IMG/VR virus record: IMGVR_UViG_2778261693_000004
Span: 1-16,397 of that record
Source of the DNA: a virus
Taxonomy: Duplodnaviria; Heunggongvirae; Uroviricota; Caudoviricetes
Direction: 5' to 3' (one strand)
DNA: 16,397 nt
The position numbers were made by a program, and so were the translations under genes. A model generated the notes under the pieces. It ran no database searches. It saw only the letters and a program-made list of their open reading frames with translations, and had not been told where the DNA came from. This document shows, in pieces, positions 1 to 15,858 of this stretch (position 1 is its first letter; each line of letters opens with the position of its first letter).

Positions 1-1
1 G

Positions 2-166
2 GCATCCAACGCCATTCATGGCCATATCAATGATTTTCTGGTGCGTACCGGGTTGAGAAGCGGTGTAAGTGAACTGCAGTTGCCATGTTTTACGGCAGTG
101 AGAGCAGAGATAGCGCTGATGTCCGGCGGTGCTTTTGCCGTTACGCACCACCCCGTCAGTAGCTGA
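2..166 (+). CDS. 3' end of a plus-strand CDS running off the left edge; by P1 synteny possibly the C-terminus of the type III restriction subunit Res
   Basis: Frame 2 is open from the window edge to TGA at 164-166 (…[31 protein letters not shown]). It converges on the mat-position gene as res does in P1. I do not recognise the residues themselves. Confidence 0.3.
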
Positions 167-501
167 ACAGGAGGGACAGCTGATAGAAACAGAAGCCACT
201 GGAGCACCTCAAAAACACCATCATACACTAAATCAGTAAGTTGGCAGCATCACCAGCCTCATTTTGATGTCATTATTAGCAATTTAAAAAAGTTATGTCC
301 GAATATCATCGCTGAAGGCGTCGAAAACATTGATTGTCATAAGTTATCAAAAGGGATAGGGCTATGGGGCACTCAGGGATATTTTTTCCCATCAATTCCG
401 CTGACGGAGATTGAGTCCATAGATAGTAAGTGGCTATCAGATTTATGAGATGCAGAGAGTTAGGATATTGATATGAACATCTAAGCACCTCATTACTGTG
501 C

Positions 502-954
502 TTAAAAGATGTTATCCTTACCTGTTAATTTACCTTGAGGAACTTTAGTGAGCTCCATCCGATAAAATGCTTTTATCATATTTACAAATGGCTCATATGG
601 TGAATATTCGTTGTCTTGTTTAGTAACGGTGTCTGTCATTGTCCTGATGTAGTCTGCGCTTACCACGTTGTTGTTTGCTTCAATTAGTACCGGCCTGCCG
701 TTCATGAAGGGATCACGCAACCTTACACGCTGGCCAACTCGACCGGTAATAAAGCTGTTTTCCTCTTCCACCAGCACGATAAAACCCTTTTCCTCTTTTT
801 CTCGCAATTCGCGCAGCAGCTGGAGTTCCATATCGCGGCGGCGTTCAGGGTAGCTGGTCCGCTCAGCCATTATCAGCTCATTGTTGATCCATGCAGCAGT
901 CATTGACGCCGGTTTGCCGACGCTCATTGAAACAACGCATATTTTCTTATCCAT
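502..954 (-). CDS. Hypothetical protein at the position P1 gives to mat (between ref and res)
   Basis: ORF 502-981; I place the start at the internal ATG 952-954 (MDKKICVV…), which has an AGGGG Shine-Dalgarno 5 nt upstream. Assignment is by synteny only. Confidence 0.5.
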   Translation of the reverse strand: MDKKICVVSMSVGKPASMTAAWINNELIMAERTSYPERRRDMELQLLRELREKEEKGFIVLVEEENSFITGRVGQRVRLRDPFMNGRPVLIEANNNVVSADYIRTMTDTVTKQDNEYSPYEPFVNMIKAFYRMELTKVPQGKLTGKDNIF

Positions 955-1142
955 AGCGCCCCTACAAAAAAGAAAAGCCACCAGCGGCGGCTTAGCAATA
1001 CAACTGAAGGTAGCGCCCGGTACTCAGACTGTGCCGTCCATGGAATATTTGAAAGGGGATCCATCCGTACCGGGCATGTGATGATTCTGACTGAAGTCAC
1101 TTGTCAGTTGTCAATCATTTATCATTAAAAATAATATATTTA

Positions 1143-1703
1143 TTAGTGCATGATGTTTGCCATCTCATAGGCGTCAGCCAGTAACTCCATCTCTGACTTG
1201 TTCAGCAGGGTGAATTCTTTCTTGCCTCCAACCACACCATCGGCATGAACAGGGACCAGCCAGGGGTATTTTGCTCTTACTTCAGCCGGAGCTGCATGCT
1301 GGTGGTGCCATCTACAAAGAGGCAATTGCTTTTTATGACAACCCGGCGCGGTACGACCGGCGATATGGTGCAGAGACATCTCATTAGATATTACTCCATG
1401 CATATAGCAGGCAATGCAGGGGAGAGTGCCAAGAGCATTGGCGATGCGCCGTTCCTCCGCCGTTGGTGTTCTCCCCTTCAAGCCACGAGATTTTATTTTT
1501 ACCGCGCTTTTCCGCGTTTTGCTGGCTGGTAGGCGCTCTTTCTGTTTAGCGATACGGCGGTCGAGAGTATCCCGCATTTTCTGATATTGAGATTCTCGCC
1601 AGACCGGATCAGCCAACTTCTCCCGTTGCCGAGCGATCGCTCGTTCTCTGGCTGCCTTCTGCCACTTGCGGCACTGTTCAATTTTTTGTTCGATTGTTTT
1701 CAT
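1143..1703 (-). CDS. ref: Ref, HNH-family endonuclease that stimulates RecA-dependent recombination
   Basis: 186 aa, matching P1 Ref length. Cys/His HNH-like cluster (CIACYMHGV…HHIAGRTAPGCHKKQLPLCRWHH). C1 operator and TATAAT upstream; position after cra as in P1. Confidence 0.75.
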   Translation of the reverse strand: MKTIEQKIEQCRKWQKAARERAIARQREKLADPVWRESQYQKMRDTLDRRIAKQKERLPASKTRKSAVKIKSRGLKGRTPTAEERRIANALGTLPCIACYMHGVISNEMSLHHIAGRTAPGCHKKQLPLCRWHHQHAAPAEVRAKYPWLVPVHADGVVGGKKEFTLLNKSEMELLADAYEMANIMH

Positions 1704-1708
1704 ATGGC

Positions 1709-1736
1709 AAAAAAAAAAGGCGGCCTAATGGCCGCC
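1709..1736 (-). terminator. Intrinsic-terminator-like hairpin plus U10 on the minus strand, ending 5 nt before the ref ATG
   Basis: GGCGGCC-TAAT-GGCCGCC (1719-1736) with an A10 run at 1709-1718 on the plus strand, which is U10 after the hairpin on the minus-strand RNA. Confidence 0.5.
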
Positions 1737-1803
1737 AATGATGTCAAGGAGTGAAGTAATGGCAACGTCTTCGTAGTTGACAAAAACTGCGGCTCAATTA
1801 TAG

Positions 1804-1820
1804 CGATCTATTAGAGCAAT
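1804..1820 (-). promoter_or_regulatory. C1 repressor operator (Op2-like) in the ref promoter
   Basis: cgatctATTAGAGCAAT on the plus strand matches the reverse complement of ATTGCTCTAATAAATTT at 13/17. A perfect TATAAT lies on the minus strand at 1797-1802. Confidence 0.65.
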
Positions 1821-1926
1821 GATAGATATTTTGTTTATCGCTAATCACATTTTTTCACTTCAGTACCTGTGTGCTATACTCCTTCTTGATTGATTGGATG
1901 CGGAATACAAACCCGCTCTTTTGTGC

Positions 1927-1954
1927 AGCCTGGCTCCTTGCCAGGCTTTTTTTT
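1927..1954 (+). terminator. Plus-strand rho-independent terminator with no annotated plus-strand gene upstream
   Basis: AGCCTGGC-tcctt-GCCAGGCT hairpin followed by T8 (1947-1954). Candidate extended -10 (TGcTATACT, about 1873-1881) lies 50 nt upstream on the same strand. Confidence 0.45.
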
Positions 1955-2264
1955 ATTTCATCATGGAAGTTGTTAACGCTTTGGACCTTGCTGAACTGAT
2001 TGAGAGGGCTTTGTCAACGTGCCCCAAAAATTCGCCAAACTCAGACATCACTTTAGCAAAACCGCGCCGTGCTTCTTCCTCGGTGGCATTCATCACGAAA
2101 TGTTCAGCACCACGCATACTTTTGACAGGGAACGCAACGGATATTGAATCAATATCAGGCATTCTATCGCTCAGCTTTACAGTGACAATGACGGCTGGCG
2201 ACTGAATATTAGTGCTTACAGACAGCACTACATATTTTCCGTCGATGTTGAAATCCTTTCTCAT
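1953..2264 (-). CDS. cra: Cra (cre-associated) small protein
   Basis: 103-aa ORF with GGTGA Shine-Dalgarno 3 nt before the ATG. Its offset from cre/loxP matches where I recall P1 cra. The equal-length mirror ORF on the plus strand has no Shine-Dalgarno. Confidence 0.5.
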   Translation of the reverse strand: MRKDFNIDGKYVVLSVSTNIQSPAVIVTVKLSDRMPDIDSISVAFPVKSMRGAEHFVMNATEEEARRGFAKVMSEFGEFLGHVDKALSISSARSKALTTSMMK

Positions 2265-2280
2265 ATGTCACCATAAATAT

Positions 2281-2297
2281 CAAAGAATTAGAGCAAT
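2281..2297 (-). promoter_or_regulatory. C1 operator-like site between cre and cra
   Basis: caaagaATTAGAGCAAT, 13/17 to the reverse-complement consensus. Confidence 0.4.
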
Positions 2298-2314
2298 CAT
2301 TTACGCGTTAATGG

Positions 2315-3346
2315 CTAATCGCCATCTTCCAGAAGGCGCACCATTGCCCCTGTTTCACTATCCAGGTTACGGATATAGTTCATGACAATATTTACGTTGG
2401 TCCAGCCACCAGCTTGCATGATCTCCGGTATTGAAACTCCGGCACGGGCCATATCTCGCGCGGCTCCGACACGGGCACTGTGTCCAGACCAGGCCAGGTA
2501 CCTCTGGCCAGAGTCATCCTTAGCCCCGTAAATCAATCGGTGAGTTGCTTCAAAAATCCCTTCCAGGGCGCGAGTTGATAGCTGGCTGGTGGGTGATGGC
2601 GAGGCAACACCATTTTTTCTGACCCGGCAAAACAAGTAGTTATTCGGATCATCAGCCACACCAGAGACAGAAATCCATCGTTCGACCAGTTTAGTTACCC
2701 CCAGGCTAAGTGCCTTCTCTACACCCGCGGTACTAACCAGAGTTTTCGTTCTGCCAATATGGATTAGCATTCTCCCACCGTCTGTACGTGAGATATCTTT
2801 AACCCTGATCCTGGCAATTTCGGCTATACGTAACAGGGTGTTATAAGCGATCCCCAGAAATGCCAGATTACGTATATCCTGGCAGCGATCGCTATTTTCC
2901 ATGAGTGAACGAACCTGGTCGAAATCAGTGCGTTCGAACGCCAATGCCTGTTTTGCACGTTCACCGGCATCAACGTTTTCTTTTCGAATCCGCCGCATGA
3001 CCAGTGAAACAGCATTGCTGTCACTTGGTCGTGGCAGCCCGGACCGACGATGAAGCATGTTTAGCTGGCCCAAATGTTGCTGGATAGTTTTTACTGCCAG
3101 ACCGCGCGCCTGAAGATATAGAAGATAATCGCGAACATCTTCAGGTTCTGCGGGAAACCACTTCCGGTTATTCAACTTGCACCATGCCGCCCACGACCGG
3201 CAAACGGACAGAAGCATTTTCCAGGTATGCTCAGAAAACGCCTGGCGATCCCTGAACATGTCCATCAGGTTCTTGCGAACCTCATCACTCGTTGCATCGA
3301 CCGGTAATGCAGGCAAATTTTGGTGTACGGTCAGTAAATTGGACAT
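2315..3346 (-). CDS. cre: Cre site-specific tyrosine recombinase
   Basis: 343-aa translation (MSNLLTVHQNLPALPVDATSDEVRKNLMDMFRDRQAFSEHTWK…MVRLLEDGD) is recognisable along its full length as P1 Cre. loxP lies about 420 bp upstream. Confidence 0.97.
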   Translation of the reverse strand: MSNLLTVHQNLPALPVDATSDEVRKNLMDMFRDRQAFSEHTWKMLLSVCRSWAAWCKLNNRKWFPAEPEDVRDYLLYLQARGLAVKTIQQHLGQLNMLHRRSGLPRPSDSNAVSLVMRRIRKENVDAGERAKQALAFERTDFDQVRSLMENSDRCQDIRNLAFLGIAYNTLLRIAEIARIRVKDISRTDGGRMLIHIGRTKTLVSTAGVEKALSLGVTKLVERWISVSGVADDPNNYLFCRVRKNGVASPSPTSQLSTRALEGIFEATHRLIYGAKDDSGQRYLAWSGHSARVGAARDMARAGVSIPEIMQAGGWTNVNIVMNYIRNLDSETGAMVRLLEDGD

Positions 3347-3353
3347 TTAACAC

Positions 3354-3575
3354 TCAGACAATAGTTTTAAGTAAAGTGTACAGGATTGGCTCTGCCTTTA
3401 CCTGTTTATGGTTCTCGTCATAGAAACGCCAGCGACCGCGCGTGCGTTCTATTTTCTCTTCACCGCGCGATAATGACAGTTGGCAACTATCACGATCAAA
3501 CCCTTTTGCCCGCCAGTAACCACGGTTTTTCTCAAGCTCAAGATGAGTGGACACTTTAGCAGCTGAATATCCCAT
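3354..3575 (-). CDS. Small ORF (73 aa) immediately upstream of cre and translationally coupled to it
   Basis: ATG at 3573-3575 preceded by GAGGTG 4-5 nt upstream. Stop lies 7 nt before the cre ATG. Basic protein (MGYSAAKVSTHLELEKNRGYWRAKGFDRD…). Confidence 0.35.
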   Translation of the reverse strand: MGYSAAKVSTHLELEKNRGYWRAKGFDRDSCQLSLSRGEEKIERTRGRWRFYDENHKQVKAEPILYTLLKTIV

Positions 3576-3671
3576 TTTTCACCTCTGATTGATTGGTGGT
3601 GCTAAGTGCGCTACGCGAAATCTGGAGCACTAACACTGCCAACATTTCGCAGATTTTACGTAGCGCAACCT

Positions 3672-3693
3672 TGATCAAATGATCAAGTGATCA
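3672..3693. promoter_or_regulatory. Cluster of three TGATCA (Dam GATC) sites in the cre upstream region
   Basis: TGATCA at 3672-3677, 3680-3685 and 3688-3693, with a fourth at 3741-3746. Consistent with the reported Dam-sensitive cre promoter region. Confidence 0.5.
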
Positions 3694-3764
3694 CTATTTG
3701 ACCTGATAAGGTATTGAACTGTATGGATTTACAGGTAAATTGATCATGTTCAATAACCCTTAAG

Positions 3765-3798
3765 ATAACTTCGTATAATGTATGCTATACGAAGTTAT
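3765..3798 (+). other. loxP: loxP recombination site
   Basis: Exact ATAACTTCGTATA-ATGTATGC-TATACGAAGTTAT. Confidence 0.98.
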
Positions 3799-3841
3799 CA
3801 GGTCCGAAGAGGAGTTTACGTCCAGCTGCGCACAAAAATCA

Positions 3842-3858
3842 AGAATTATTAGAGCAAT
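3842..3858 (-). promoter_or_regulatory. C1 operator (Op99-like) upstream of coi
   Basis: agaattATTAGAGCAAT, 15/17 to the reverse-complement consensus. Confidence 0.7.
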
Positions 3859-3924
3859 AAATTTTGAGAGAAAAATCCCACTCCACCAGCTAAAAACTGG
3901 ATTGTTTTTCATAGTTGTTTGACA

Positions 3925-3941
3925 ATTGCTCTAATAAATTA
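3925..3941 (+). promoter_or_regulatory. C1 operator (Op99-like) upstream of coi, opposite orientation to the previous site
   Basis: ATTGCTCTAATAAATTa, 16/17 to consensus. Confidence 0.75.
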
Positions 3942-4179
3942 TAGTTTTGCCGCCGTTACGTAATACGACTTTGGATTCACTATTTAATGTGTCTTCAGCG
4001 TTGTAGAGCGGCTCAGAAGGAAATGAGCAAACAGGGAAACCTTATACAACGGCATTACAGCTATGCATTGCTCATCTTACACACAGCGCAATGTTGTTAG
4101 ATTACCCCAGCATGGATCATGGGTGAAACAGTAGGTCAGAGCTTCAGGCTCTGTGTTGTCAATACAGTGAGGCATAATT

Positions 4180-4389
4180 ATGGCTTTCATTCAACCAACC
4201 ATCGACGACGTTAGACATTGCTCTAACGCTTTATCTGTAGACCCTGCCGAAACCGACGCTGCCCGCACCATTGCTGAACACTACTCAAAGATATCCAATC
4301 AGGACTACCGCATCACCCAAGACGACCTGGATGACCTCACTGACACAATCGAATATCTCATGGCAACTAACCAGTTAGCCTCACAATAA
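4180..4389 (+). CDS. coi: Coi, C1 inactivator
   Basis: 69 aa, the length I recall for P1 Coi. Sits directly upstream of c1 with flanking C1 operators. GAGG Shine-Dalgarno. Confidence 0.75.
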   Translation: MAFIQPTIDDVRHCSNALSVDPAETDAARTIAEHYSKISNQDYRITQDDLDDLTDTIEYLMATNQLASQ

Positions 4390-4405
4390 ATGCACTAATA
4401 AATCT
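4389..4405 (+). promoter_or_regulatory. C1 operator-like site between coi and c1
   Basis: aATGCaCTAATAAATcT, 14/17 to consensus. Confidence 0.5.
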
Positions 4406-4499
4406 ATTATTTTTGTTTGATCCCTCTATAATATAGGTCAGTAATGACCGGTTTTCTCAGCCGGGCGTTATTGACCATGTCAATTCTGGAGGAGGATCA

Positions 4500-5351
4500 A
4501 TGATAAATTATGTCTACGGCGAACAACTGTACCAGGAGTTCGTCAGCTTCAGGGATCTCTTTCTAAAAAAAGCTGTTGCACGCGCCCAACACGTTGATGC
4601 CGCCAGCGACGGTCGTCCTGTTCGCCCGGTTGTCGTTCTGCCGTTCAAAGAAACGGACAGCATTCAGGCTGAAATTGATAAATGGACTTTAATGGCGCGG
4701 GAACTGGAACAGTACCCAGACCTCAATATCCCAAAGACTATTTTATATCCAGTGCCTAACATCCTTCGCGGTGTACGTAAGGTTACAACTTATCAGACAG
4801 AAGCTGTGAACAGCGTCAACATGACCGCTGGCCGCATTATTCATCTGATTGATAAGGATATTCGCATCCAAAAAAGCGCGGGGTTCAATGAGCACAGTGC
4901 GAAATACATAGAGAACCTGGAAGCAACAAAAGAGCTAATGAAGCAGTACCCGGAGGATGAAAAATTCCGTATGCGCGTACACGGCTTTAGCGAAACAATG
5001 CTGCGCGTCCACTACATTTCCAGTAGCCCTAACTACAATGATGGTAAATCAGTTAGTTACCATGTGCCACTGTGTGGCGTGTTTATCTGCGATGAAACCC
5101 TCCGTGATGGAATCATCATCAACGGTGAATTCGAGAAAGCAAAATTTAGCCTTTATGACTCCATAGAACCGATCATCTGCGACCGCTGGCCGCAGGCAAA
5201 AATATATCGCCTGGCAGATATTGAAAATGTAAAAAAACAAATTGCCATCACTCGCGAAGAGAAAAAGGTCAAATCAGCCGCATCAGTTACGCGCAGTCGT
5301 AAAACTAAGAAGGGGCAGCCAGTAAACGACAACCCCGAAAGCGCGCAATAA
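4500..5351 (+). CDS. c1: C1 prophage repressor
   Basis: 283 aa, the length I recall for P1 C1. GGAGGAGG Shine-Dalgarno. Follows coi, about 0.7 kb from loxP. Window carries nine copies of its operator motif. Confidence 0.85.
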   Translation: MINYVYGEQLYQEFVSFRDLFLKKAVARAQHVDAASDGRPVRPVVVLPFKETDSIQAEIDKWTLMARELEQYPDLNIPKTILYPVPNILRGVRKVTTYQTEAVNSVNMTAGRIIHLIDKDIRIQKSAGFNEHSAKYIENLEATKELMKQYPEDEKFRMRVHGFSETMLRVHYISSSPNYNDGKSVSYHVPLCGVFICDETLRDGIIINGEFEKAKFSLYDSIEPIICDRWPQAKIYRLADIENVKKQIAITREEKKVKSAASVTRSRKTKKGQPVNDNPESAQ

Positions 5352-5354
5352 ATT

Positions 5355-5376
5355 ATGCCCGGCATCAACCGGGCAT
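5355..5376. terminator. Hairpin between convergent c1 and antirepressor genes, possible bidirectional terminator
   Basis: ATGCCCGG-catcaa-CCGGGCAT, 8-bp stem, with A/T-rich flanks. Confidence 0.4.
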
Positions 5377-5383
5377 TCTTCCA

Positions 5384-6529
5384 TTATTCAGCCGCCACCG
5401 GTTTTAACAAGCCAGCATCGAGCAGTTTACGCGTCAACCACTGTTGTCCTTTCCCCGTTAATTGGGGCGTCAGCCGTATCTGGTAGCCATCTTCATCATC
5501 CAGCACCACTTCTTTCACTGTGAAATATCCGGCGTTTATGTACTGCTGGAACGGCACATTTTTACGCCCGCCGGACGCTATCAGAATGCCGTTCTCCCGT
5601 AACCAGGCAAACAGCGCGTTTTGCTTCAGCCCAACAACCTTTGCAAAATTACCAATCAGGATCCCCTTAGCCACTGATACACGGTCGGCAAAATCGACCT
5701 TGGGGGCTGCGGCCACCAGTTGTTGATTTAGCTGGTGGGCCTTCTGTTCCAGTAGCTGCTTTTGTTCAGCCAGCTCGGCAGCCAGGCGCAAGGCTTCAGG
5801 TAGTGTTTGGGGGATTGCGACCGGTTGCTGTTCTTTTTGCCGGAAGTAGCTGTCTTCCAGTTTTTCAAAGAATGCCCATGCTTCATCTGTGTTTACGATC
5901 TTAGACATGCGTGCCGCTCCGCGTTCGGCCCAAAGAATTACCTGGCTTGTATATTTGCTAACCAGGTGACTAGTAGTCACCAGCCTTTTAAATTCCTTTA
6001 ATTTTTAACCAGTTAAGAGATAGTAATGCTTACCTTCTTCAAAGCGATCGGAGTTGCGAGACAAATTTTTACGAATATTAGCTTCATCGGTTCCATACCC
6101 CTTAGCAAGAGTTTCGGTCGTTACTACACGCACTCCCAGCCATTCCAGAACGGGAATTTCATCAGACTGATTCTGAACAACCACCAGCTCTGATTCCTGA
6201 ACTGAAGTTGCATGAATTTTTTCTGATTTAACGTTAGTTGCTTTCATTCTGTGTGCCTCCTTGCGTGCTTCGGCTGCGACGGTTGCGTAATTCAGATGAC
6301 CCTGTTCGAGCAGGTATTCACGGATATCGGTCACAGCGATAGCCTTTAAGCGCAGATAAACATCGCGCTTATCGACATCCAGATGCGGGTATTCCTTTTC
6401 AAGAATTGCTGCGAGTTCTTTCGCTGATAGAAGAGATTTAGTGCGGATCATGTAATCCGCAATCTCGTACGATGTTATTCGTGAGTGATTTATTTCCATG
6501 AAGTGGCGTCCCTGCCAGTTAAGTAACAT
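5384..6529 (-). pseudogene. Antirepressor-like gene (ORF6N/Rha-type N-terminal domain plus KilA-C/ANT C-terminal domain) split by an in-frame TAA at 6005-6007
   Basis: ORFs 6005-6529 and 5384-5980 are in the same frame. The upstream ORF stops mid-domain (…SDRFEEGKHYYLLTG*) and the domain continues after the stop (KLKEFKRLVTTSHLV…TDEAWAFFEKLEDSYF). The downstream part carries a KilA-C-like motif (GNFAKVVGLKQNALFAWLRENGIL…PFQQYINAGYF) and begins only at a GTG. Confidence 0.6.
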
Positions 6530-6599
6530 CCTGTCACCTACTGATTAGCCCATGTCAACTAATCAACGTCGAATATAATACCATCGATTAAAGAAATAG

Positions 6600-6616
6600 C
6601 AATACATTAGAGCAAT
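6600..6616 (-). promoter_or_regulatory. C1 operator-like site upstream of the antirepressor-like gene
   Basis: caatacATTAGAGCAAT, 14/17 to the reverse-complement consensus, 71 bp upstream of the ATG at 6529. Confidence 0.55.
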
Positions 6617-6617
6617 T

Positions 6618-7664
6618 TTATCTAACGCTCGACGAATGACTTGTGATAGCGCCGACTCCAAGCGCGTAATCAAAGAACAATCGTTGATGCATCGCCAGCC
6701 TACCGTGCGTCTTCTCCCAATTATCGCGGTCACGCTCAATATCACGCTGGCATGACTGGCACAGAGGAATAGCATAAATGTCATGCGCGCATAATCGACT
6801 ATAACGAACGATATAAGGCGTAATGTGAGCGCCAGCTCCCGCCGCTCCACACCCACAGCATGGACGGGAAGCAACAAAGTCCATGTACTCAGGTAATTTT
6901 AGCGATTGCAGTTTTGGTATTTTGAAATGCGCCATACCTGGGTCGGAGTCAACATCCACAGGGCATACTTTTGCACGCATCGGCGCGGCGCGTTCTTCCA
7001 TCATCTGAACATATGCTGTAGCGCGATCGTCATACGGGCGAATATCCGCCTCTTTCAGTGGTCCGCTATCCTGCGGAGTAGCCTTCATCTTATTTATTAT
7101 TGATATGCGGCAGACTTCTTCCGGCATCAGGTGCATCATGTTGCGCATGAAAGCCCACCAGCACAGCTCCTGAATACTTAAATCATGGCTATTTGAAAGG
7201 CCCATTTCCTGACGGGCGACATCCAGTATCCAGTTAACGCGATTATTGTGCAGCGTTTCTTTCAGCTCATTAAAACCACGCATCCGGTAATGGTTATCGT
7301 GATGCCAGCACAACAACACCGCGCTATTGTCTCGTTCAGCGTGGACAATATGGTTGTCACACCAACTACGATCTGCGGCCTGGCATTGACCCTCTTTCCT
7401 ACGCAACCACGCCACCAGCGCGTCAATTCCACCAATACGGCGAAACAGTTCATCGCTGTTAAAAAACGGCTGCAACGCCTCATTTGTTGCCATGGTTTGC
7501 TCGGTAACAACGAGGCCGTCTTCCATGTGCTCGATTAACTCACGCGGCACCGGCTCCATAATAAATTTACGGCCAGCCTCCACCAGCTTTCTGACCTCCT
7601 GATCCACTTTGAACGTGGCGAGGCCAAGCTCTTTCTGTACAAAGGGAGTAATTACGGCTTTCAC
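6618..7664 (-). CDS. Hypothetical 348-aa protein with a C-terminal Cys/His cluster resembling the Ref HNH-like motif
   Basis: GTG start with AAGGTG Shine-Dalgarno 4 nt upstream. C-terminus …[42 protein letters not shown]. At the position I recall for P1 pdcB, but I do not recognise the sequence. Confidence 0.6.
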
Positions 7665-7691
7665 ATCACACCTTTAATCACTGATTGGGCT

Positions 7692-7871
7692 TTATCTGCT
7701 GCCCGACATTATCTGTTTAAGCACAACCATTTCCTGACGGCATAACACAGCAATAGCGGTCCTGGCACCAATTTGCTTACTAACCAGGTATTGCTTTATC
7801 TTGCGGCGACTCACGCCATCAAGAAGCATCTTTAACGCTTCACGGGACAATTTGTTGTATTTGCGTGCCAT
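7692..7871 (-). CDS. Small basic protein (59 aa) immediately downstream of doc
   Basis: ATG at 7869-7871, 4 nt after the doc stop (MARKYNKLSREALKMLLDGVSRRKIKQYL…). At the position I recall for P1 pdcA. Confidence 0.45.
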   Translation of the reverse strand: MARKYNKLSREALKMLLDGVSRRKIKQYLVSKQIGARTAIAVLCRQEMVVLKQIMSGSR

Positions 7872-7875
7872 TAAT

Positions 7876-8256
7876 CTACTCCGCAGAACCATACAATCTA
7901 CGTAACGTGGCGGCGACAGAAGATACAGATATCTCGCCAGTCGCAGCGCCTACAGTAAGGTCTGCCAGTTCAGGTGAATCAAATACCTGCACCCCATTAC
8001 GGCGTAGAAATAGCAGCGCACTGTTTAGCGCGGTACGCTTATTGGCATCATTGAATATATGCCCTCTCGCTGTAGCCACCAGGTAGGTGGCGGAGACTTC
8101 GAAAAGGTCGGTGATCTCTTCGTAGGCAACTCTGGCCTGAACTCTCCCGATAATGGCCTCTGCCCTACCCGGATCTGACATTCCCGGCAGGCCGCCGTAG
8201 CGGTTTATATTCGCATCATGAAGCGCAATAAGTTCTTCCGGTGATATATGCCTCAT
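7876..8256 (-). CDS. doc: Doc toxin (Fic-fold kinase) of the phd-doc addiction module
   Basis: 126 aa ([22 protein letters not shown]…[23 protein letters not shown]…), recognised as P1 Doc. Its start overlaps the phd stop. Confidence 0.95.
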
Positions 8257-8477
8257 TATCGGTTAACCAGTTCCTTGTTGGTGGAGTCCAGGGTGTCAAA
8301 CAGGGATGCAAATTCAGCATCCAGCGCCGCTTTTTTGTAGGCTTCGAAAGTAGCCTTGCTGACAATTACTGCTGGCTCACGGCCTCTGCGGGTGATTTCA
8401 ACCTCTTCCCCGGCTTCAACATTGTTGAGCACTTCAGAAAGGTTGCCGCGCGCGGTACGGAAGTTAATGGATTGCAT
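8256..8477 (-). CDS. phd: Phd antitoxin
   Basis: 73 aa from the ATG at 8475-8477 ([49 protein letters not shown]…), recognised as P1 Phd. GAGGTG Shine-Dalgarno. Confidence 0.93.
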
Positions 8478-8484
8478 AAACACC

Positions 8485-8510
8485 TCGTGTACTCGTTATG
8501 TGTACACAAT
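8485..8510. promoter_or_regulatory. Phd/Doc autoregulatory operator with palindromic GTGTACAC sites
   Basis: Perfect palindrome GTGTACAC at 8501-8508 and a one-mismatch copy at 8487-8494, between a -10-like TATAAT on the minus strand and the phd Shine-Dalgarno. Confidence 0.55.
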
Positions 8511-8549
8511 TATAAACTTCACAGGCATAAAGCACCAGCACTTTGCAGC

Positions 8550-8939
8550 TTAAATCACCGGACAATCATCAAATTCCCCACTTCGGGCATCATTAATGAC
8601 ATGAGTGATCACACCAAACACAGCATTACTCCCCGTGCATCCATCGTCATCCACTGGTAACGCCTCTTTCTTCCCGGTGCTTAAATCCTCCAGGTGCTGG
8701 CGCGGATACTTTCGGTATCTCTTTATGCGATATTCACCCTCCATAGCGCACACAAGCAGCGAACCATCAACTGGAGTAAGCGAAGAATCAACCACCAGCA
8801 AAGCACCCTGCAATATTCCCTCACGGTGATGGCTATCAGCTGCCCGCATGAAGTAGGTTGCTGATGGATGTCTAATTATCTGCTGATCAAGAGAAATTCG
8901 GCTTTCAACATAATCCGCCGCAGGAGAAGGGAAACCCAT
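8550..8939 (-). CDS. humD: HumD, UmuD'-like SOS mutagenesis protein
   Basis: 129 aa starting [30 protein letters not shown]…, which aligns with the processed form of E. coli UmuD ([30 protein letters not shown]…); C-terminal [12 protein letters not shown] matches FGVVIHVVKAMR. Confidence 0.9.
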   Translation of the reverse strand: [129 protein letters not shown]

Positions 8940-8958
8940 AGCGTTTTACCTCAAAAAT

Positions 8959-8974
8959 ACTGTTTATCTATACA
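8959..8974. promoter_or_regulatory. LexA box (CTGT-N8-ACAG) in the humD promoter
   Basis: taCTGTttatctatACAGca, about 20 bp upstream of the humD Shine-Dalgarno and ATG, overlapping a plausible TTGCAC/TAATGT promoter on the minus strand. Confidence 0.65.
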
Positions 8975-9113
8975 GCATACATTAAAGAAGCACCTTTGGT
9001 GCAAACGCGTTATGTACATCAACCACCGCTGATGATTTTTGTGCGCTTTGCTACTATTCATCACCGCGGGATCAGCGTAACCTCGTTGCCAATCAGTTAA
9101 TAAGGAATTAGCT

Positions 9114-9698
9114 ATGCCTAATCGCATTCCTCTCGATCCTGTATTGCCCAAAAATTTTGACTGCACTCCTAACGAGAAACGCTCTAAAGCTCAGCTGGAC
9201 GCCTAGTGGGACCATCCATATGGGGTTACACAACCTGACGGGAAAATTGTAGTTTATTGTCTGAATGGTGGGGCGTGGGACCGTCCATCCATGCTTTGTT
9301 TGGCAGATAACTATGATGAAGCCTGTGAACTTGCCGAAAGACAGCAGGCAAGCTGGGTAAAAACACGGTCTGAACCGACATTCATGTTTTCAAAAGAACC
9401 GCCATTTATACTGGCGAGGATGCCGCAGCGACCGGATCATCAACAAGAAATTGTTGCTGAATTTTCCTCAAGGGATGAGATGAATCTCTTCTCATTAAAG
9501 CAGGAAGAAAGGGATCGCGTCGAAGTGTCTCCAACTCTCGACCACAACCGGATGAACCTGGCCCAGCTCGCCTGGTACAGCAAAGAATTAGAGATGTCTA
9601 TTGCCCGGCTTGAAAACGAAAAAGCCGCTATCCAAGTCCAGCACGAAGTAGTTCTGAACCGGATTAGAGAAATGCAAAACGATAACAGGGGATTTTGA
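9114..9698 (+). CDS. Hypothetical protein; reading frame from a well-positioned ATG is interrupted by an in-frame TAG at 9204-9206 (uninterrupted ORF starts at 9291)
   Basis: AAGGAA Shine-Dalgarno 8 nt before the ATG at 9114. Frame is open for 30 codons, then TAG, then continuously to 9698. The ATGs at 9291 and 9314 have no Shine-Dalgarno. The stop abuts the next gene's ATG. Confidence 0.45.
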
Positions 9699-10055
9699 AT
9701 GGCTAAAATCGAGTACCATCGCGATCGCGGTAATTACCTGGAAATATACGATCATGAATCTCTTAACGATATCAACGATGCGTTATATGAATACTGTGAA
9801 AAAACGAGCATCACAGATGCACCTGATGCATTTGTCGAGCTGCCGGTATATCTCCGCGACATCTATGCAATACGAACACCGCCCGTATCGGTGATTCACA
9901 TTGGCTATGTCCGCCTGTCCATCGAAGAAGATGAAGATCGTTATATCGTGCGCCACTATACATTGGACAGAAAAGAACTTCCTAATGAATGGAACATGAG
10001 TAATTTCTACAACGGTGAATATGGCTTAAAATCCGCTAATAATTTACGGTCATAA
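9699..10055 (+). CDS. Hypothetical 118-aa protein, translationally coupled to the upstream gene
   Basis: ATG at 9699 directly follows TGA at 9696-9698. AGGGGA Shine-Dalgarno. Sequence not recognised. Confidence 0.55.
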   Translation: MAKIEYHRDRGNYLEIYDHESLNDINDALYEYCEKTSITDAPDAFVELPVYLRDIYAIRTPPVSVIHIGYVRLSIEEDEDRYIVRHYTLDRKELPNEWNMSNFYNGEYGLKSANNLRS

Positions 10056-10900
10056 TCTATACAGGCATGTATAACAACAACGAGCCTATTAGCTGTCAAC
10101 AACGTTATTTCCTCAAATAAGAAAAAGCAGAAAACAAATTGTTTAAGGTCACAAATTGTGGCCTTGATGGAGGAGGGAGGCTTATTGGCTATGGCTAAAA
10201 ATCAAATTAGACACTTCATGTTGCTGTAGCTCATCAAGATCCGAGGCCACAAAACCTTTTCCGAAAAACTTCACAAGTAACTCACTAGCCGCATCATTGT
10301 CACCTATTACACGAAAGTCATACGGCAACGTCGCAAGTTGACGATGTAATCCTGCTGAGAAAGTCGAATCTAACAGCGCCCAGAATTCCCACCGCAGGAT
10401 AATACTCGCCTCTTAATACTGTATATATGTTGTTACGATATGTTTTTCTGTCTCTAAAAAAAGATGTTTGAAGGGGATAAAAATATACAATTCCAACAAA
10501 CGTTATTTTTAACAATTTTTTTCTTTGCGTTGACTTTCCCGGACACCTTGTCTGACCTAAGGTGCGCGAAAGCCACTTTTTCCTTCCTGAGTTATCCACA
10601 AAGTTATGCACTTGCAAGAGGGCCATTTTCTACATATTGTGGTGGCTAACAGATGAAATGAATGTAGATTAATTGAAGATAAGGAGAAAATTTGAGATGC
10701 AATCATGACGTTAATAGATAGGGTCTGCATTACAGACCCCACCCGCATCAAGGAATTAGCCGTTCCCTGATGTTTTTCCGAAAACATGTGCCGTAAGCTC
10801 ACGTTAACGACTTTCATTCACCGAATCCAACTATATAGGGGTTGGGTTTCTACGTCAACGTGAGCAAGTGCACCTTTACATTTGACAAGGAACCACCTGA

Positions 10901-11038
10901 ATGAACGCTTTTTTTCAGTTCCTGAGTGCATTTTTAGATGCGCCTATTATTAGCCAGATTCTGGCTATTATCCTCATCATCGTTTTGATTTTGCTTTTAA
11001 GGTCAGTAAAAAATGGAATTATGCACTGGCTTACTTAA
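10901..11038 (+). CDS. Small hydrophobic peptide (45 aa), single predicted transmembrane helix
   Basis: MNAFFQFLSAFLDAPIISQILAIILIIVLILLLRSVKNGIMHWLT with AAGGAA 8 nt upstream. Sits in an otherwise ORF-poor AT-rich region. Confidence 0.3.
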   Translation: MNAFFQFLSAFLDAPIISQILAIILIIVLILLLRSVKNGIMHWLT

Positions 11039-11113
11039 TGTTTCAGTGAAACATTAAAATCTCCTTGATGTGGAAACAATCATTTTCTGTATGTGCTGGT
11101 GGGCACCTGTAGT

Positions 11114-11476
11114 TCAGCTTTCGTTGGCATTTAACTTCGTCTTTGCTTTCTCCACCAGCAACTTCCAGATGCCTATTTCATTAGCAGCCGCCTTGATGGC
11201 GGCATAAAAAGCATCTTGCTGATCGTAACGCTGGATCTGTTTTTTCAGTTTTGCCTCCACCAATTTAATTTCATTACGTGCTTTCTGAAGCCGCATCACC
11301 GCCCGGTTACGTCTGTTCTTGTATAGCGTGTTAATCTCTGACAATTGCTTTAATTTACCAGCCTGACTGCGGATTATCGCCTCCCTGGCTTCTGCCGTGC
11401 GTCTCATCTGATCTCTTAAGAGTTCACCGTTTTCGATAATTCTTTCAAGGTGTTTGATGTGATCTGCAACTCTCAT
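11114..11476 (-). CDS. Hypothetical 120-aa basic, probably coiled-coil protein; last gene of a five- or six-gene minus-strand operon
   Basis: Start overlaps the stop of the upstream 293-aa gene. Lys/Arg/Glu-rich heptad-like sequence. Confidence 0.6.
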   Translation of the reverse strand: MRVADHIKHLERIIENGELLRDQMRRTAEAREAIIRSQAGKLKQLSEINTLYKNRRNRAVMRLQKARNEIKLVEAKLKKQIQRYDQQDAFYAAIKAAANEIGIWKLLVEKAKTKLNANES

Positions 11477-12354
11477 ACTTCACCCTCGCTTGTATCACCA
11501 GCGTCCACCAACGACAATAAAGCCCTGGCCATCTTATGAACCAACAGTGCATCAATAATGCCAAGCGTATGCCCCGGCTTAATGTTTAATGCTGCCTCAA
11601 GATGACACCTTTCCAGACCGCTTTTCTCGGCTTGTTTATGATGATATGGCGTAATAACGTCGCCCAAAACACGGCTAATTCTTTCTCGTAATTGCTGGGT
11701 GCCAGCACACTTGATCGCTGTATCGTGGAGACGGTTAACCAGTTCGCGATAAACATGCGGCTTAATGCGGATACGTTCACCGGTGACGCCCTTTCCTGGC
11801 GTAGGCACCGAACTATCCGGAATATCCGGATAGTTGCCAGCCAGTCTACGCAAAACAGCCTTAATTGCATCAATACGGTCATCATCAACTTTTTCTACAA
11901 TATTGGAATTTAAATACTTCGAAGCCTTGCTATGCCAATCGCTGGTTTTAGGGTCTTGTCCATCCATCAAACGCCAAGCTTCAGCGATTAACTCATAGCC
12001 AGTAACAGTGGCTTCCTGCGCATCACCAATCAGTTGTGTGATCTCTCTTTCAAGCATGCTTAGAGCGTTAGGCATTGGTTTTTCTTCCGGTACTACTGGA
12101 ACGGGGGGAGCGGCGTAGACCTCAATAATTCCATTATCAATAGGCCATTCTCCATCCTTGAGGTAGTCACTTGTGCCGTCAACTTGCTGTTCTGCAATGT
12201 GGAATGCACCTATTGGTTTTGCTTCCAGTGATGCCAGAGCAATTCGTGCCAGTTCTTCCGCTTCTTCTGCTGGCAGTACAACGTTGCTACCAGGTCCGTA
12301 TGTTTCGCGCCACTGCTTGATTGTCAGTAGTCGCTCTTTGGTAATAGTGGTCAT
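11473..12354 (-). CDS. Hypothetical 293-aa protein
   Basis: Long ORF overlapping both neighbours by 4 nt (operon coupling). Sequence not recognised. Confidence 0.65.
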   Translation of the reverse strand: MTTITKERLLTIKQWRETYGPGSNVVLPAEEAEELARIALASLEAKPIGAFHIAEQQVDGTSDYLKDGEWPIDNGIIEVYAAPPVPVVPEEKPMPNALSMLEREITQLIGDAQEATVTGYELIAEAWRLMDGQDPKTSDWHSKASKYLNSNIVEKVDDDRIDAIKAVLRRLAGNYPDIPDSSVPTPGKGVTGERIRIKPHVYRELVNRLHDTAIKCAGTQQLRERISRVLGDVITPYHHKQAEKSGLERCHLEAALNIKPGHTLGIIDALLVHKMARALLSLVDAGDTSEGEV

Positions 12355-12866
12355 GCCGCGTTTCCTTCTTTCTTATTAACAATTACACCGTCATATATTT
12401 CATTAAGGTGCCCTCTCAACTCCATGCGCCTTAATGCAGATAACATGTAATCGCATTCAACCTGCTTATTTCCAGTAAATGGCTTATCGTCAGGATTACC
12501 CCAACAGCAATTACCCTTGGGCCACCCATGTACTTTCCGTACTCTTCCGTTAACAACGTGAAGTAATCCCCAGCCAGGTGGTAAATCCTCAATTGAAATA
12601 ATTCCCGGCTCACTAATAAAGAATCGCCAGTCGCCCATTCCAAGAGACGGATTTTTACGAAAACGCTTTTTTCTATCTGCCAACAAGTCAGCACGAGAAC
12701 ACTTCGCCTCTATCAGGCATGATGCTGAATTTCTGAATCCCATAGCATCTGGCTGTTCTCCGGTACTGGTTACAGCTATAAAGCGGTCATGAAAACAAAC
12801 CTTGAACCCGTTGCGCTTAAGGAACTTGTACGCAATCTGACAGAGTTCGCGGTGTGTTAACGCCAT
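12351..12866 (-). CDS. Putative PD-(D/E)xK-fold nuclease (MmcB-like)
   Basis: 171 aa with a D…E-x-K signature (…GEQPDAMGFRNSASCLIEAKCSRADLLAD…). ATG overlaps the stop of the upstream PP-loop ORF. Confidence 0.55.
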   Translation of the reverse strand: MALTHRELCQIAYKFLKRNGFKVCFHDRFIAVTSTGEQPDAMGFRNSASCLIEAKCSRADLLADRKKRFRKNPSLGMGDWRFFISEPGIISIEDLPPGWGLLHVVNGRVRKVHGWPKGNCCWGNPDDKPFTGNKQVECDYMLSALRRMELRGHLNEIYDGVIVNKKEGNAA

Positions 12867-12867
12867 A

Positions 12868-13234
12868 TCACTCTCCTTTGATGCGAATGCCAGCGTCAGA
12901 CATCATATGCAGATACTCAACTGCATCCTGAACCCATTGACCGCCAATCCCGTAATAGCGATGCGTAATGATGTCGATAGTTACTAACGGGTCTTGTTCG
13001 ATTAACTTCCGCAGAAACTCTTCCAGGTCACCAGTGCAGTGCTTGATGACAGGAGTTTTCCCAGGATGGCGAACAACAAGAAACTGATTTCCGACTTCAC
13101 GGACTTCGTTGCTTTCCAGTTCTGCTATCCATAAAAATGAAATGGACGCTAACGCCAGCTTTTCGCTGTGCTTCCATCAGATGAACGAGATAAGCCGATG
13201 TTCGTCCACCTGAAAAGCTGACGACTTGATGCAT
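12868..13234 (-). pseudogene. PP-loop (SGGxxS) ATP-pyrophosphatase-like gene, apparently frameshifted
   Basis: ATG at 13232-13234 gives MHQVVSFSGGRTSAYLVHLMEAQRKAGVSVHFIFMDSRTGKQRSP*. A second frame overlapping it by about 80 nt continues to 12868 (…NQFLVVRHPGKTPVIKHCTGDLEEFLRKLIEQDPLVTIDII…). The switch lies near a T5 run / GGAAAG around 13100-13135. Confidence 0.45.
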
Positions 13235-13243
13235 ACTCACGGT

Positions 13244-13822: not shown

Positions 13823-13831
13823 GCATCCCCC

Positions 13832-13918
13832 TTACCCATGTGCGACGATGCCGCCAAAAGTGATAGAGAACAGCCAGAAATAGATCGCGGCCATAATGAT
13901 TTTGAATGCCGTGTTCAT
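13832..13918 (-). CDS. Small hydrophobic peptide (28 aa), first ORF of the operon
   Basis: MNTAFKIIMAAIYFWLFSITFGGIVAHG with AGGAG 9 nt upstream. Its stop lies 9 nt before the ASCH gene's ATG. Confidence 0.3.
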   Translation of the reverse strand: MNTAFKIIMAAIYFWLFSITFGGIVAHG

Positions 13919-13945
13919 ATTTTCAGCTCCTGTGATTGATTGGAT

Positions 13946-13977
13946 ACATGCCGCGCCTTGCGGCATGTTTTTATTTT
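13946..13977 (+). terminator. Plus-strand rho-independent terminator in the leader of a minus-strand operon
   Basis: ACATGCCGC-gcctt-GCGGCATGT (9-bp GC-rich stem) followed by TTTTTATTTT. No plus-strand gene upstream. Confidence 0.45.
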
Positions 13978-13991
13978 CACTTTCTCTGTTT

Positions 13992-14008
13992 TAAAAATCA
14001 TTATTTAT
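13992..14008 (-). promoter_or_regulatory. C1 operator in front of the ASCH/PP-loop/nuclease operon
   Basis: ttATTTATTAGAGCAAT, 15/17 to the reverse-complement consensus. Confidence 0.7.
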
Positions 14009-14016
14009 TAGAGCAA

Positions 14017-14523: not shown

Positions 14524-14542
14524 ATGCCCTCCTCATTGGACG

Positions 14543-14576: not shown

Positions 14577-14595
14577 AAAAGTGACACTGTAACTA

Positions 14596-15858
14596 TCAGC
14601 GAACGTAAATAGTGCCGCCGTTCACTTTTTCCCATGCATCGCTAAGTGCATAGCAAACATCAAGAAGTCTTCTTGCCGCTGTTTCCTCTAAACCCAATTC
14701 GACAACCAACTGCTCATGACGGCGGGTAACCACATCAAACAGGGTATGCAGCCCTTTAGCTGCCAGATCATCAATAAATTCCGGTTCGAACGGCAGCTCT
14801 GCATCTGCCAACATAACCTCTTGCGCCCACTCAACTCGACGGACCAGTTCCGGGCGGCGGCTTTCCATCTCTTTACAGATCAATTCATGGAAGAACTCTA
14901 CCCAACCTTCCGGCTGGAACTCGCGGAAAATTGCCAACGGCTGGAAGTTTGGCATCAACCATTCGTTGATTCGGATATCAATGGCATAGCCCATGTCGCA
15001 GCAGAACTGATAAGCAAAGTCCAGCTTAGAAACGATATAAGGACGCTCGTTATTGAACTCTTTAGGCGATGAGATCCCATAAGCCAGGAGGCGCGGGAAG
15101 AATGAGATTTGCCCTAACGTCGGATGGAGTTTGCTTGCAGGAAAACGGCGCTCAGTAATGCCATACATTTCCTTCTTGAGCGTCGCAAATTTAGCATTTT
15201 CATTAACCAGCGCGGTAACCTCTGCTTTTTTATTAGCAAATGCCACGCGCGCTTCGCTTGCATCTTTAATAGTTTTTTTGAGCTGTTGGTTAAGATCGGC
15301 GACCTGCTTACGCAGTTCCTGTCGCTCGCTTTTAGCTTTGTTATAGCGTTTCTCAAGGTTAAAAGGATCAAGTTTCATGATCTCTTTATATTGAGATTTT
15401 AGCGTTGAAATCTGTGAGTTCCGCAGTTCAACCATCGCGGTCATTTCATTGAGTTTTGTTTCCAGCTCAATGCTTATACGTTCGGCATTATCAGCACGCT
15501 GGTTGGCGTCATGCGTCGCATCGTCGATCGCGTCCTGTTGCTGGCGTTTCAAATGTTCAATTTGCAGCTGAAGCTCTTCAATTTCTTTACCCTTCAGACC
15601 GAGATCCAACTGCATATTTTCAGCTGCATCTACCAGGGAGTTATGGCTATCAGCTTCTGCGTTATAAACATCAATAAGCTGTGCGTGAAGCATCTCCGCT
15701 GACTGAACCGCATTATCAAAAAAACGCGCTGTGAGGTCATCACAACTAACGCGGCGTTGCGCGGCCCGGATGTTCTGGATAATGGCCGGGATACCGGCAT
15801 TCAGGACGTCAGGGATAGATACATTTTCGATTGATTGGTTTTGTGCTGAAGTGCTCAT
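14596..15858 (-). CDS. Hypothetical 420-aa protein, N-terminal coiled-coil plus a C-terminal globular domain
   Basis: Long ORF; residues about 80-220 are heptad-rich (…EIEELQLQIEHLKRQQQDAIDD…). Sequence not recognised. Confidence 0.65.
   Translation of the reverse strand: MSTSAQNQSIENVSIPDVLNAGIPAIIQNIRAAQRRVSCDDLTARFFDNAVQSAEMLHAQLIDVYNAEADSHNSLVDAAENMQLDLGLKGKEIEELQLQIEHLKRQQQDAIDDATHDANQRADNAERISIELETKLNEMTAMVELRNSQISTLKSQYKEIMKLDPFNLEKRYNKAKSERQELRKQVADLNQQLKKTIKDASEARVAFANKKAEVTALVNENAKFATLKKEMYGITERRFPASKLHPTLGQISFFPRLLAYGISSPKEFNNERPYIVSKLDFAYQFCCDMGYAIDIRINEWLMPNFQPLAIFREFQPEGWVEFFHELICKEMESRRPELVRRVEWAQEVMLADAELPFEPEFIDDLAAKGLHTLFDVVTRRHEQLVVELGLEETAARRLLDVCYALSDAWEKVNGGTIYVR

Follow-up and report, generated by a model that had tools for sequence, protein, structure and literature searches.

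The DNA analysed here, referred to as the window, is the 16,397-nucleotide (nt) stretch formed by positions 1 to 16,397 of IMG/VR record IMGVR_UViG_2778261693_000004, a virus of the Caudoviricetes. It is a P1-like phage-plasmid and runs as the reverse complement of the P1 reference, with 97% identity to AF234172 across 1650-2320. Its minus strand carries the genes cra, cre, c8 and ref, and in the interval between c8 and ref an extended -10 promoter is followed, on the plus strand, by an intrinsic terminator (Table 1). Judging from sequence comparisons, this promoter-terminator pair is very likely a real and unannotated gene for a regulatory RNA of phage P1 and its relatives. We also consider it probable, if well short of certain, that the product is a small RNA (sRNA) of about 67 nt, proper to the P1 family of phage-plasmids, which would act mainly in trans through a 5′-terminal seed on complementary boxes in the start regions of genes.

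The 103-aa open reading frame (ORF) next to the RNA gene is c8 ("establishment of lysogeny, putative") in the annotation of the P1 reference, which reserves the name cra for the 73-aa ORF. In the record of phage JL22, at least, c8 is labelled "cra". The original prediction described an RNA antisense to the 3′ end of cra. The neighbour is c8, however, and the overlap is limited to its stop codon (1953-1955), into which the U-tract of the terminator (1948-1954) reaches.

Table 1. Positions of the features discussed in the text (window coordinates unless another sequence is named)
Feature	Position	Strand	Remarks
Weak -35-like hexamer TTTTCA, probably dispensable	1852..1857	+	consensus scan; 17 nt to the -10
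Extended -10 TGCTATACT	1872..1880	+	consensus scan
Predicted small non-coding RNA, ~67 nt	1888..1954	+	5′ end inferred, possibly 1-2 nt further upstream
Seed GAUUGAUUGG, predicted 5′ end of the RNA	1888..1897	+	
Hairpin 1, variable sequence, conserved shape	1896..1919	+	base pairs with the last 2-3 seed nt
Intrinsic terminator	1927..1954	+	8-bp stem 1927-1947 with 5-nt loop; U-tract 1948-1954
ref	1143-1703	-	ATG at 1703
c8, 103 aa, "lysogeny establishment protein"	1953-2264	-	convergent with the RNA gene, which it always precedes
cre	2315-3346	-	
cra, 73-aa ORF upstream of cre	3354-3575	-	ATG 3575
Predicted target box, cra leader	3587..3596	-	-21..-12 from ATG 3575; 1 nt upstream of Shine-Dalgarno sequence GAGGUG
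13-mer TTCRCGTAGCGCA	~3597-3625; JK004 ~47846-47870; pCVMN1543 ~12575-12602	- (window)	
28-aa hydrophobic ORF MNTAFKIIMAAIYFWLFSITFGGIVAHG, predicted target gene	13832..13918	-	first cistron after P1pmgT; AF234172 ~84399-84485
Predicted target box, 5′ untranslated region of the C1-controlled pmgT operon	13934..13943	-	-25..-16 from the ATG of the 28-aa ORF
Predicted target box in pmgS	15829..15838	-	+21..+30, codons 7-10

Both the extended -10 and the strong plus-strand terminator of the original prediction were confirmed by a consensus scan, and both are kept in distant relatives. The terminator has the form AGCCTGGC-TCCTT-GCCAGGCT (1927-1947) and then T8, to 1954. Among the plus-strand terminator-like sites in 1000-3800 it is the only one with a T run directly after the stem; a second match at 2210-2230 has a scattered T-rich tail only. 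On the minus strand the same hairpin is followed by UGCACAAAAG, so that termination would be one-directional. The start of the RNA at about 1888 was placed 7-8 nt after the -10, and with the end at 1954 this gives 67 nt, equivalent to complement(1828..1894) of AF234172/NC_005856. The RNA folds into two hairpins (-23.2 kcal/mol, z-score -3.4). The gene appears to be driven by an extended -10 promoter of the -35-independent kind, which no C1 operator seems to overlap. The nearest C1 operator is Oref (~1804-1820), and no C1 operator, LexA box, IHF site, GATC or lox-like repeat was seen when 1865-1955 was read by eye. A P1 late (Lpa-dependent) promoter was considered and rejected: it needs a 9-bp -22 box (AAGTGACTT in LPmat) 4 nt upstream of the -10, and here the 9 nt at -22 are AGTACCTGT, the only likeness to LPmat being the 8-mer ACTTCAGT in the wrong register. 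Promoter-like and terminator-like matches are frequent by chance (7 vs 4.5 expected and 3 vs 2.9 expected, respectively). The pair alone is therefore weak evidence, and the case for the gene was built on conservation.

No stretch of the locus is as well conserved in P1-like elements as the RNA region. Nucleotide diversity (pi) among 79 distinct IMG/VR loci is 0.0096 at 1887-1955 vs 0.0935 at the adjacent intergenic 1761-1864, which contains P2ref and a C1 operator; in c8 the same loci give 0.149 at codon position 3 and 0.019 at position 2. The element is carried by about 700 PLSDB plasmids. Over the 84 nt that comprise the -10 and the RNA, 481 of ~695 PLSDB plasmids are at least 99% identical and none falls below 90%, whereas the neighbouring 84 nt reach at least 99% in only 14 and fall below 90% in 180. 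Not one of 58 distinct P1-like sequences departs from TATACT at the -10 hexamer. Within P1-likes the terminator stem is invariant as well, its changes being confined to the loop and to the length of the T-run (5-9). Loss of the hairpin in relatives had been named beforehand as an outcome that would speak against the RNA; the hairpin is invariant in ~700 P1-like plasmids and shows a compensatory change in distant relatives. Hairpin 1 gives mixed evidence within P1-likes, with one compensatory change from G-C to A-U and several breaks of outer pairs.

The -35 element, read as TTcAC in the original prediction, is present as a weak -35-like hexamer, but it is not conserved: it varies within P1-likes, is absent in the JK004 and Salmonella relatives described below, and is replaced by the ends of Tn3-family transposons in loci L034 and L073. 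These two loci looked at first like module boundaries at ~1864. They are in fact insertions of two different Tn3-family transposons within a few bases of each other, at ~1864-1868, between the -35-like element and the -10. Two PLSDB matches, H79 and H80, also lose homology at ~1864-1868, which suggests that this is an insertion hot spot.

A k-mer protein search for c8 homologues outside P1-like elements found none, all relatives being at least 81% identical, and a scan of genome contigs for c8 gave 3 loci. The distant relative, Cronobacter phage JK004, was found by tblastn against phage records and has a c8 homologue of 48% identity. Downstream of this gene, after one extra small ORF and on the opposite strand, stands ttgTGaTATACTcattcgcGATTGATTGGcttgtagcgaaactacagccatgtGTGCAGCCcGGCgaaaGCtGGGCTtctttctttt. 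A pattern search in which TGnTATACT, the 7-nt spacer and the seed were required gave 26 distinct sequences of three types: P1, JK004/L104 and Salmonella. Five S. enterica plasmids (86-94 kb; two carry the label serovar Newport) have the Salmonella type, and in the Newport plasmids it again lies downstream of a c8 homologue. Common to all types are TGnTATACT, the 7-nt spacer, GATTGATTGG, a linker ending in GTGC and a terminator; in JK004, L104, L105 and L158 the TGnTATACT stands at the same 7-nt distance from the seed. Relaxed scans of metagenome and viral contigs with GATTGATTGGB-N14-40-GTGCAGCC gave almost only chance matches, none of which passed the filters for a -10, a hairpin and a T-tail.

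Hairpin 1 could not be aligned across the three types by MAFFT/RNAalifold, and per-sequence folds were used instead. Its three sequences are unrelated, and all of them form a hairpin, the base of which takes up the last 2-3 seed nt; the seven variants folded all have z-scores between -3.0 and -3.6. The seed GAUUGAUUGG is invariant in 26/26 distinct sequences with the three hairpin-1 types, the pattern behind them having required it. Subject to the same requirement in the recovery pattern, the seed is thus conserved, and predicted to be accessible, in an RNA that has otherwise drifted. Two pairs of the terminator stem change, one from U-A to C-G, which is compensatory, and one from G-C to G-U in 4/11 sequences. 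Read on the minus strand, the G-U pair would turn into a C-A mismatch; together with the U-tail and the promoter, this shows that the element belongs to the plus strand. The sequence elements, their conservation, structure and strand are in this way established.

These comparisons also bear on two simpler explanations. First, the locus might be a gene for a small protein. An ORF from ATG 1898 to 1999, encoding a hydrophobic peptide of 33 aa, is the only plus-strand candidate, and its stop (1999) lies near the end of the conservation island. No Shine-Dalgarno (SD) sequence is present for it, and its frame crosses the terminator, reading through the T-run. This run is 5, 6, 7, 8 or 9 nt long in relatives, which gives three different C-termini, one of ~100 aa, and neither the start codon nor the frame is conserved in JK004 or Salmonella. 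The frame-shifting polymorphism and the missing SD exclude the ORF as coding, so that a protein gene has a vanishingly small probability, and the earlier statement that no plus-strand ORF has a ribosome-binding site is upheld. At the level of sequence, an independent transcription unit, with a promoter and a Rho-independent terminator around a non-coding interval, is found in three lineages. This bears out the orphan unit for an RNA of ~65 nt that had been predicted, the length being now ~67 nt (1888-1954) and the fold and the conservation supporting it.

Second, the terminator might serve only as a one-way transcriptional insulator that blocks antisense transcription from the ref/mat side into c8-cre, the short RNA itself being functionless. 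It is indeed a strong unidirectional terminator placed where convergent modules meet, and two loci have a Tn3-family transposase gene that is oriented toward it. However, insulation leaves unexplained the conservation of 1881-1926, the extended -10, the seed, and a hairpin 1 that keeps its structure in distant relatives. We therefore regard it as very improbable.

The seed is the complement of a box, CCAAUCAAUC, that recurs in these genomes. Seed nt 1-8 are predicted to be unpaired (probability 0.66-0.99), the boxes are predicted to be mostly unpaired (0.66-0.84), and the seed-box duplex has -12.2 kcal/mol. Boxes were counted as exact copies of CCAATCAATC on both strands and compared with a first-order Markov expectation, the genomes being ~90 kb each. 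There are 5 copies in P1 (0.35 expected), 6 in JK004 (0.25 expected), 4 plus one 9/10 site in Salmonella pCVMN1543 (0.28 expected) and 4 in the window (0.06 expected). Without the RNA gene the Poisson P is 5e-4, 7e-6, 3e-3 and 4e-5, respectively, the joint weight of the three genome values being lessened by their lack of independence, as orthologous sites share ancestry. For the three genomes and the window, the rank of the box among 10-mers is within roughly the first 0.07-0.4%, in a group that also holds C1 operators and Chi. In the window the 10-mer GATTGATTGG occurs 4 times on the plus strand and 0 times on the minus strand, with 0.06 expected for both strands. In the window, JK004 and pCVMN1543 the box is always on the coding strand. 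Apart from the copy in the RNA gene, and from one P1 site, no box is more than 30 nt away from a start codon. Enrichment and placement of the boxes are thus established, and complementary sites that are enriched, conserved and at regulatory positions do exist.

Three of the sites, in the leader of the cra cluster, in the small-ORF leader and at +21..+30 of pmgS, are orthologous in the three lineages, their flanking bases or codons being different. In the cra leader the order is CCAAUCAAUC-A-GAGGUG-AAAA-AUG; an orthologous box is present in the corresponding leader, ahead of the cluster's first gene, in both JK004 and pCVMN1543. The 13-mer TTCRCGTAGCGCA was also observed in this leader in the three lineages, ~10 nt upstream of the box, with a different intervening sequence. 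In the small-ORF leader the order is box-ACAGGAG-CUGAAAAU-AUG; the JK004 site is orthologous and the Salmonella site matches 9/10 positions. The 28-aa ORF itself has a good SD, lies between the promoter P1pmgT/operator Op88 and pmgT, and is unannotated in AF234172. Its homologues have 53 aa in JK004 and 46 aa in pCVMN1543, with a conserved N-terminal hydrophobic segment. JK004 has boxes in the leader of the first gene of its cra-cre-c8 cluster, at +21..+30 of pmgS, at a small hydrophobic ORF after pap, at a second small membrane ORF and at ref, where the box occupies -10..-1, directly after the leader attenuator. Among P1-like contigs the exact box is found in 113/120 for pmgS and in 85/89 for the small ORF, and 3/4 types of box variants still pair via G-U. 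By a simple filter, none of the nine P1 copies with a single mismatch has an SD-plus-start context downstream. Two possible extensions of the pairing were considered, beyond the 10-nt seed and through an anti-SD (CUCC) upstream of it; neither is conserved.

Directly after the plus-strand copy of GATTGATTGG at 13934, a terminator-like hairpin with a T-run was seen on the plus strand at 13946-13977. The likely source is the pmgT operon, whose mRNA would have a 5′ stem-loop here and whose promoter is AT-rich, both being read from the opposite strand. An antisense RNA to the initiation region of the small ORF is conceivable; no plus-strand promoter was found.

The box could also be the functional feature at the locus itself. 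On this explanation there is no functional RNA; what is conserved would be the CCAAUCAAUC box, with stem-loops, on the minus strand in the 3′ untranslated region (UTR) of c8. Wherever the box occurs, a protein or the ribosome would recognise it, perhaps as a C/A-rich translational enhancer, and the plus-strand signals would be incidental. In P1 the box at the locus is followed by an SD-like AAGAAGGAG, resembling real initiation regions, and C/A-rich translational enhancers upstream of SD sequences are known. Yet the U-tract exists on the plus strand only, the terminator G-U pair found in four sequences would give a C-A mismatch if the minus strand were transcribed, TGnTATACT stays fixed 7 nt from the seed and is conserved where the SD-like sequence is not, and no ORF follows the box at the RNA locus in P1. 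We consider a minus-strand feature decidedly improbable.

The explanation we prefer, an sRNA acting through its seed, would work as follows. We infer that the RNA is transcribed on the plus strand from the -35-independent extended -10 promoter, with the 5′ end given in Table 1, and ends at the terminator abutting the c8 stop codon. Its 5′ end would be a single-stranded seed, its middle a hairpin whose sequence varies, and its 3′ end the terminator hairpin and U-tail. In the cell the 5′-terminal seed would pair with C/A-rich boxes not more than 30 nt from a start codon, usually 1-6 nt upstream of the SD. In 8/11 sites the box does end 1-6 nt upstream of the SD, so that pairing would hinder 30S binding or mask a C/A-rich enhancer. 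As a result, translation, and perhaps mRNA stability too, would be lowered for cra(-cre-c8), for the leader ORF of the pmgT operon and for pmgS; in the JK004 lineage ref and another small membrane ORF would also be regulated. Repression is favoured over activation, by a small margin.

Features that bear on a possible chaperone differ between lineages. An Hfq-dependent sRNA would be expected to have at least 6 U after its terminator hairpin and a U-rich stretch shortly before it. The P1 type has a linker CUCUUUUGUGC and a tail of U5-U9 (mostly 7-8), and its U-rich linker and U-tail look Hfq-like. In JK004 and Salmonella the tails are interrupted (UUCUUUCUUUU, UUUUUCUUUU) and the linkers are not U-rich. 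Both carry a ProQ/FinO-family protein (Pfam PF04352, E = 2e-12), encoded by gene_111 of JK004 (L200 34956-35489) and at 72985-73515 of NZ_CP009570.2 in Salmonella; no ProQ/FinO homologue was found in P1 or in the window. It is possible that this protein acts as chaperone of the RNA in the JK004 and Salmonella lineages.

Several observations weigh against this account. The TG of the extended -10 is TA in a minority of P1-likes (L029/L032 type), and the tenth seed base is changed in a few independently found P1-like loci. The conservation island extends ~48 nt into c8 (1955-2003, the last 16 codons), synonymous positions included, and diversity rises sharply only at ~2004. The RNA model alone cannot fully explain this extension; read-through products of the terminator or a block of recombination are possible reasons. 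One P1 box (OP279344.1 ~69779-69788; L087 29780-29789, minus strand) is antisense to the 3′ end of dbn with no start codon near. The pmgS box lies at +21..+30, outside the classical five-codon window, and the conserved Q-S-I codons of pmgS may contribute to its conservation. A 10-bp seed at -12 kcal/mol is modest. A scan of the 5′ 39 nt of the RNA against the P1 genome with RNAduplex, based on energy only, gave a flat set of long, loop-rich duplexes and singled out no target; exact-seed counting was adopted after it. Because seed and boxes are both invariant, covariation between seed and target cannot be shown, and support comes from enrichment, position and orthology. Finally, the RNA-seq studies of P1 that were consulted quantify annotated genes only; P1vir data sets exist (PMC8201110; bioRxiv 10.64898/2025.12.28.696737).

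The RNA could instead be a purely cis-acting antisense RNA, like lambda OOP or GadY, that pairs only with read-through RNA from c8 to ref; processing by RNase III would then alter the stability of c8/cre mRNA or the read-through into ref. A strong minus-strand terminator, GGCGGCCATTAGGCCGCC and then T10, is found in the ref leader at 1736..1710, downstream of the ref promoters and ahead of the ATG, and presumably corresponds to the "attenuator" of Windle et al. 1988. The ref leaders of JK004 and Salmonella have an analogous hairpin with T8, and the ref genes of P1 and JK004 are without an obvious SD after the leader terminator. Between c8 and the attenuator the scan found no minus-strand terminator, so that c8 transcripts should traverse the RNA region. 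Moreover, in each of the three lineages the RNA runs toward c8 and ends against its stop codon, and the conservation reaches into the 3′ end of c8. All of this suits a cis-acting RNA. However, complementarity in cis maintains itself, which leaves the near-invariant primary sequence unexplained. The same is true of a 10-nt 5′ end that is invariant across lineages with an unrelated hairpin 1, and of dispersed, strand-consistent boxes beside start codons. The gene downstream of the RNA also differs from lineage to lineage (ref, gene_57 and RS00120). An exclusively cis-acting RNA is thus unlikely, and a trans-acting role is more likely the main one. Full complementarity between the RNA and any c8 read-through transcript makes it possible that, as a second function, the RNA acts in cis as an antisense RNA on the c8 3′ UTR or the read-through RNA. 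To this extent the original prediction, which had the RNA antisense to read-through, stands for the c8-ref intergenic read-through RNA; as the main role it gives way, given the seed and the boxes in three genomes.

In architecture and in predicted logic the RNA resembles seed sRNAs, and it is outside every named RNA family with which it was compared. Like the enterobacterial 5′-seed sRNAs RybB and OmrA/B, it has ~70 nt, its own promoter, a single-stranded conserved seed, a variable middle hairpin and a Rho-independent terminator with a U-tail, and several short complementary sites lie in translation-initiation regions. As in GcvB, a G/U-rich seed faces C/A-rich boxes just upstream of the SD. 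It differs from these sRNAs in having no sequence or Rfam relationship to them, in being encoded by a phage-plasmid and in having the phage's own genes as predicted targets. The type I antitoxins IstR-1/tisB and OhsC/shoB are comparable in their limited complementarity, two of the targets predicted here being small hydrophobic ORFs; unlike them, the P1 RNA is not adjacent to the predicted small-ORF targets.

Among phage RNAs, lambda OOP is likewise short, is made from a separate promoter, stops at a strong terminator and runs against the 3′ end of a gene credited with establishing lysogeny (cII there, c8 here). About 50 nt of OOP lie opposite cII coding sequence, and its effect, exerted in cis, depends on RNase III. 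The substantial overlap with a convergent coding 3′ end that marks the OOP type is not found here, where only the stop codon of c8 is touched; the P1 RNA differs further by its conserved 5′ seed, the dispersed boxes and the lack of sequence similarity. GadY has a similar geometry, being cis-antisense to an intergenic 3′ UTR within an operon (here the c8-ref or c8-gene_57 interval), but the Rfam match to it is noise (15.6 bits vs gathering 45). P1 itself encodes C4 RNA (immI) of ~77 nt, which represses translation by pairing with short sites beside a ribosome-binding site; the C4 sites a2/b2 and the c4 misc_RNA are annotated in AF234172. C4 is cut from the c4-icd-ant operon transcript, uses two internal loops and acts on its own operon only, whereas the RNA described here has a separate promoter and terminator, would pair through its 5′ end and would reach several unlinked operons. 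The prophage sRNAs DicF, IpeX, and AsxR/AgvB and StxS of Stx phages are likewise small RNAs of temperate phages that act by base-pairing. They mostly target host mRNAs or host sRNAs; the P1 RNA differs in that conserved predicted sites lie in the phage genome, phage genomes being what was compared.

No match to Rfam 15 at gathering thresholds was obtained across the whole window. A permissive search of 1879-1955 gave SorX at 22.6 bits (gathering 46.6) and Hrs12 at 22 (70) besides GadY; these matches are terminator-driven noise. AF234172 annotates many promoters and operators, the C4 RNA and the kilA antisense start, and nothing on the plus strand at the RNA locus; no terminators are annotated within the 53.3 kb of it examined. 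A full-text literature search for the seed or box sequences found nothing relevant. The RNA is undescribed in Rfam 15, GenBank features and the searchable literature, with an earlier mention of the terminator in key subscription-journal papers being possible.

On the far side of ref the element is unlike P1: at 1-250 and 502-981 of the window an IS1 end adjoins an ORF of 150-159 aa without Pfam match, where P1 has mat and res.

A broader, speculative reading is that a constitutive sRNA serves as the master post-transcriptional safeguard of the prophage state, with one 10-nt seed silencing the first cistrons of several operons that have to be silent in lysogens. The targets would then be small membrane peptides (in the manner of type I antitoxins), the Ref nuclease of JK004 and the cra-cre-c8 cluster that hosts the RNA. 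On this reading, which we hold to be doubtful, the c8 "establishment of lysogeny" locus or the "antiterminator" placed by inference upstream of ref in 1988 might partly reflect the RNA and not a protein.

P1 is among the most studied phages, being the source of Cre-lox and a standard tool of transduction, and P1-like phage-plasmids are common carriers of resistance genes in Enterobacteriaceae. To our knowledge, the known RNA regulators of P1 are C4 and the kilA antisense RNA. P1 would gain a further layer of regulation from an unannotated and deeply conserved sRNA whose predicted regulon comprises three to five phage genes. Such an RNA would give a function to the conserved CCAAUCAAUC boxes and draw attention to unannotated small hydrophobic ORFs. 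It also offers a directly testable hypothesis for cra, c8 and pmgS, which are poorly understood, and for the control of ref. In practice, cre constructs with native flanks, or P1 deletions between c8 and ref, may unknowingly add or remove the RNA.

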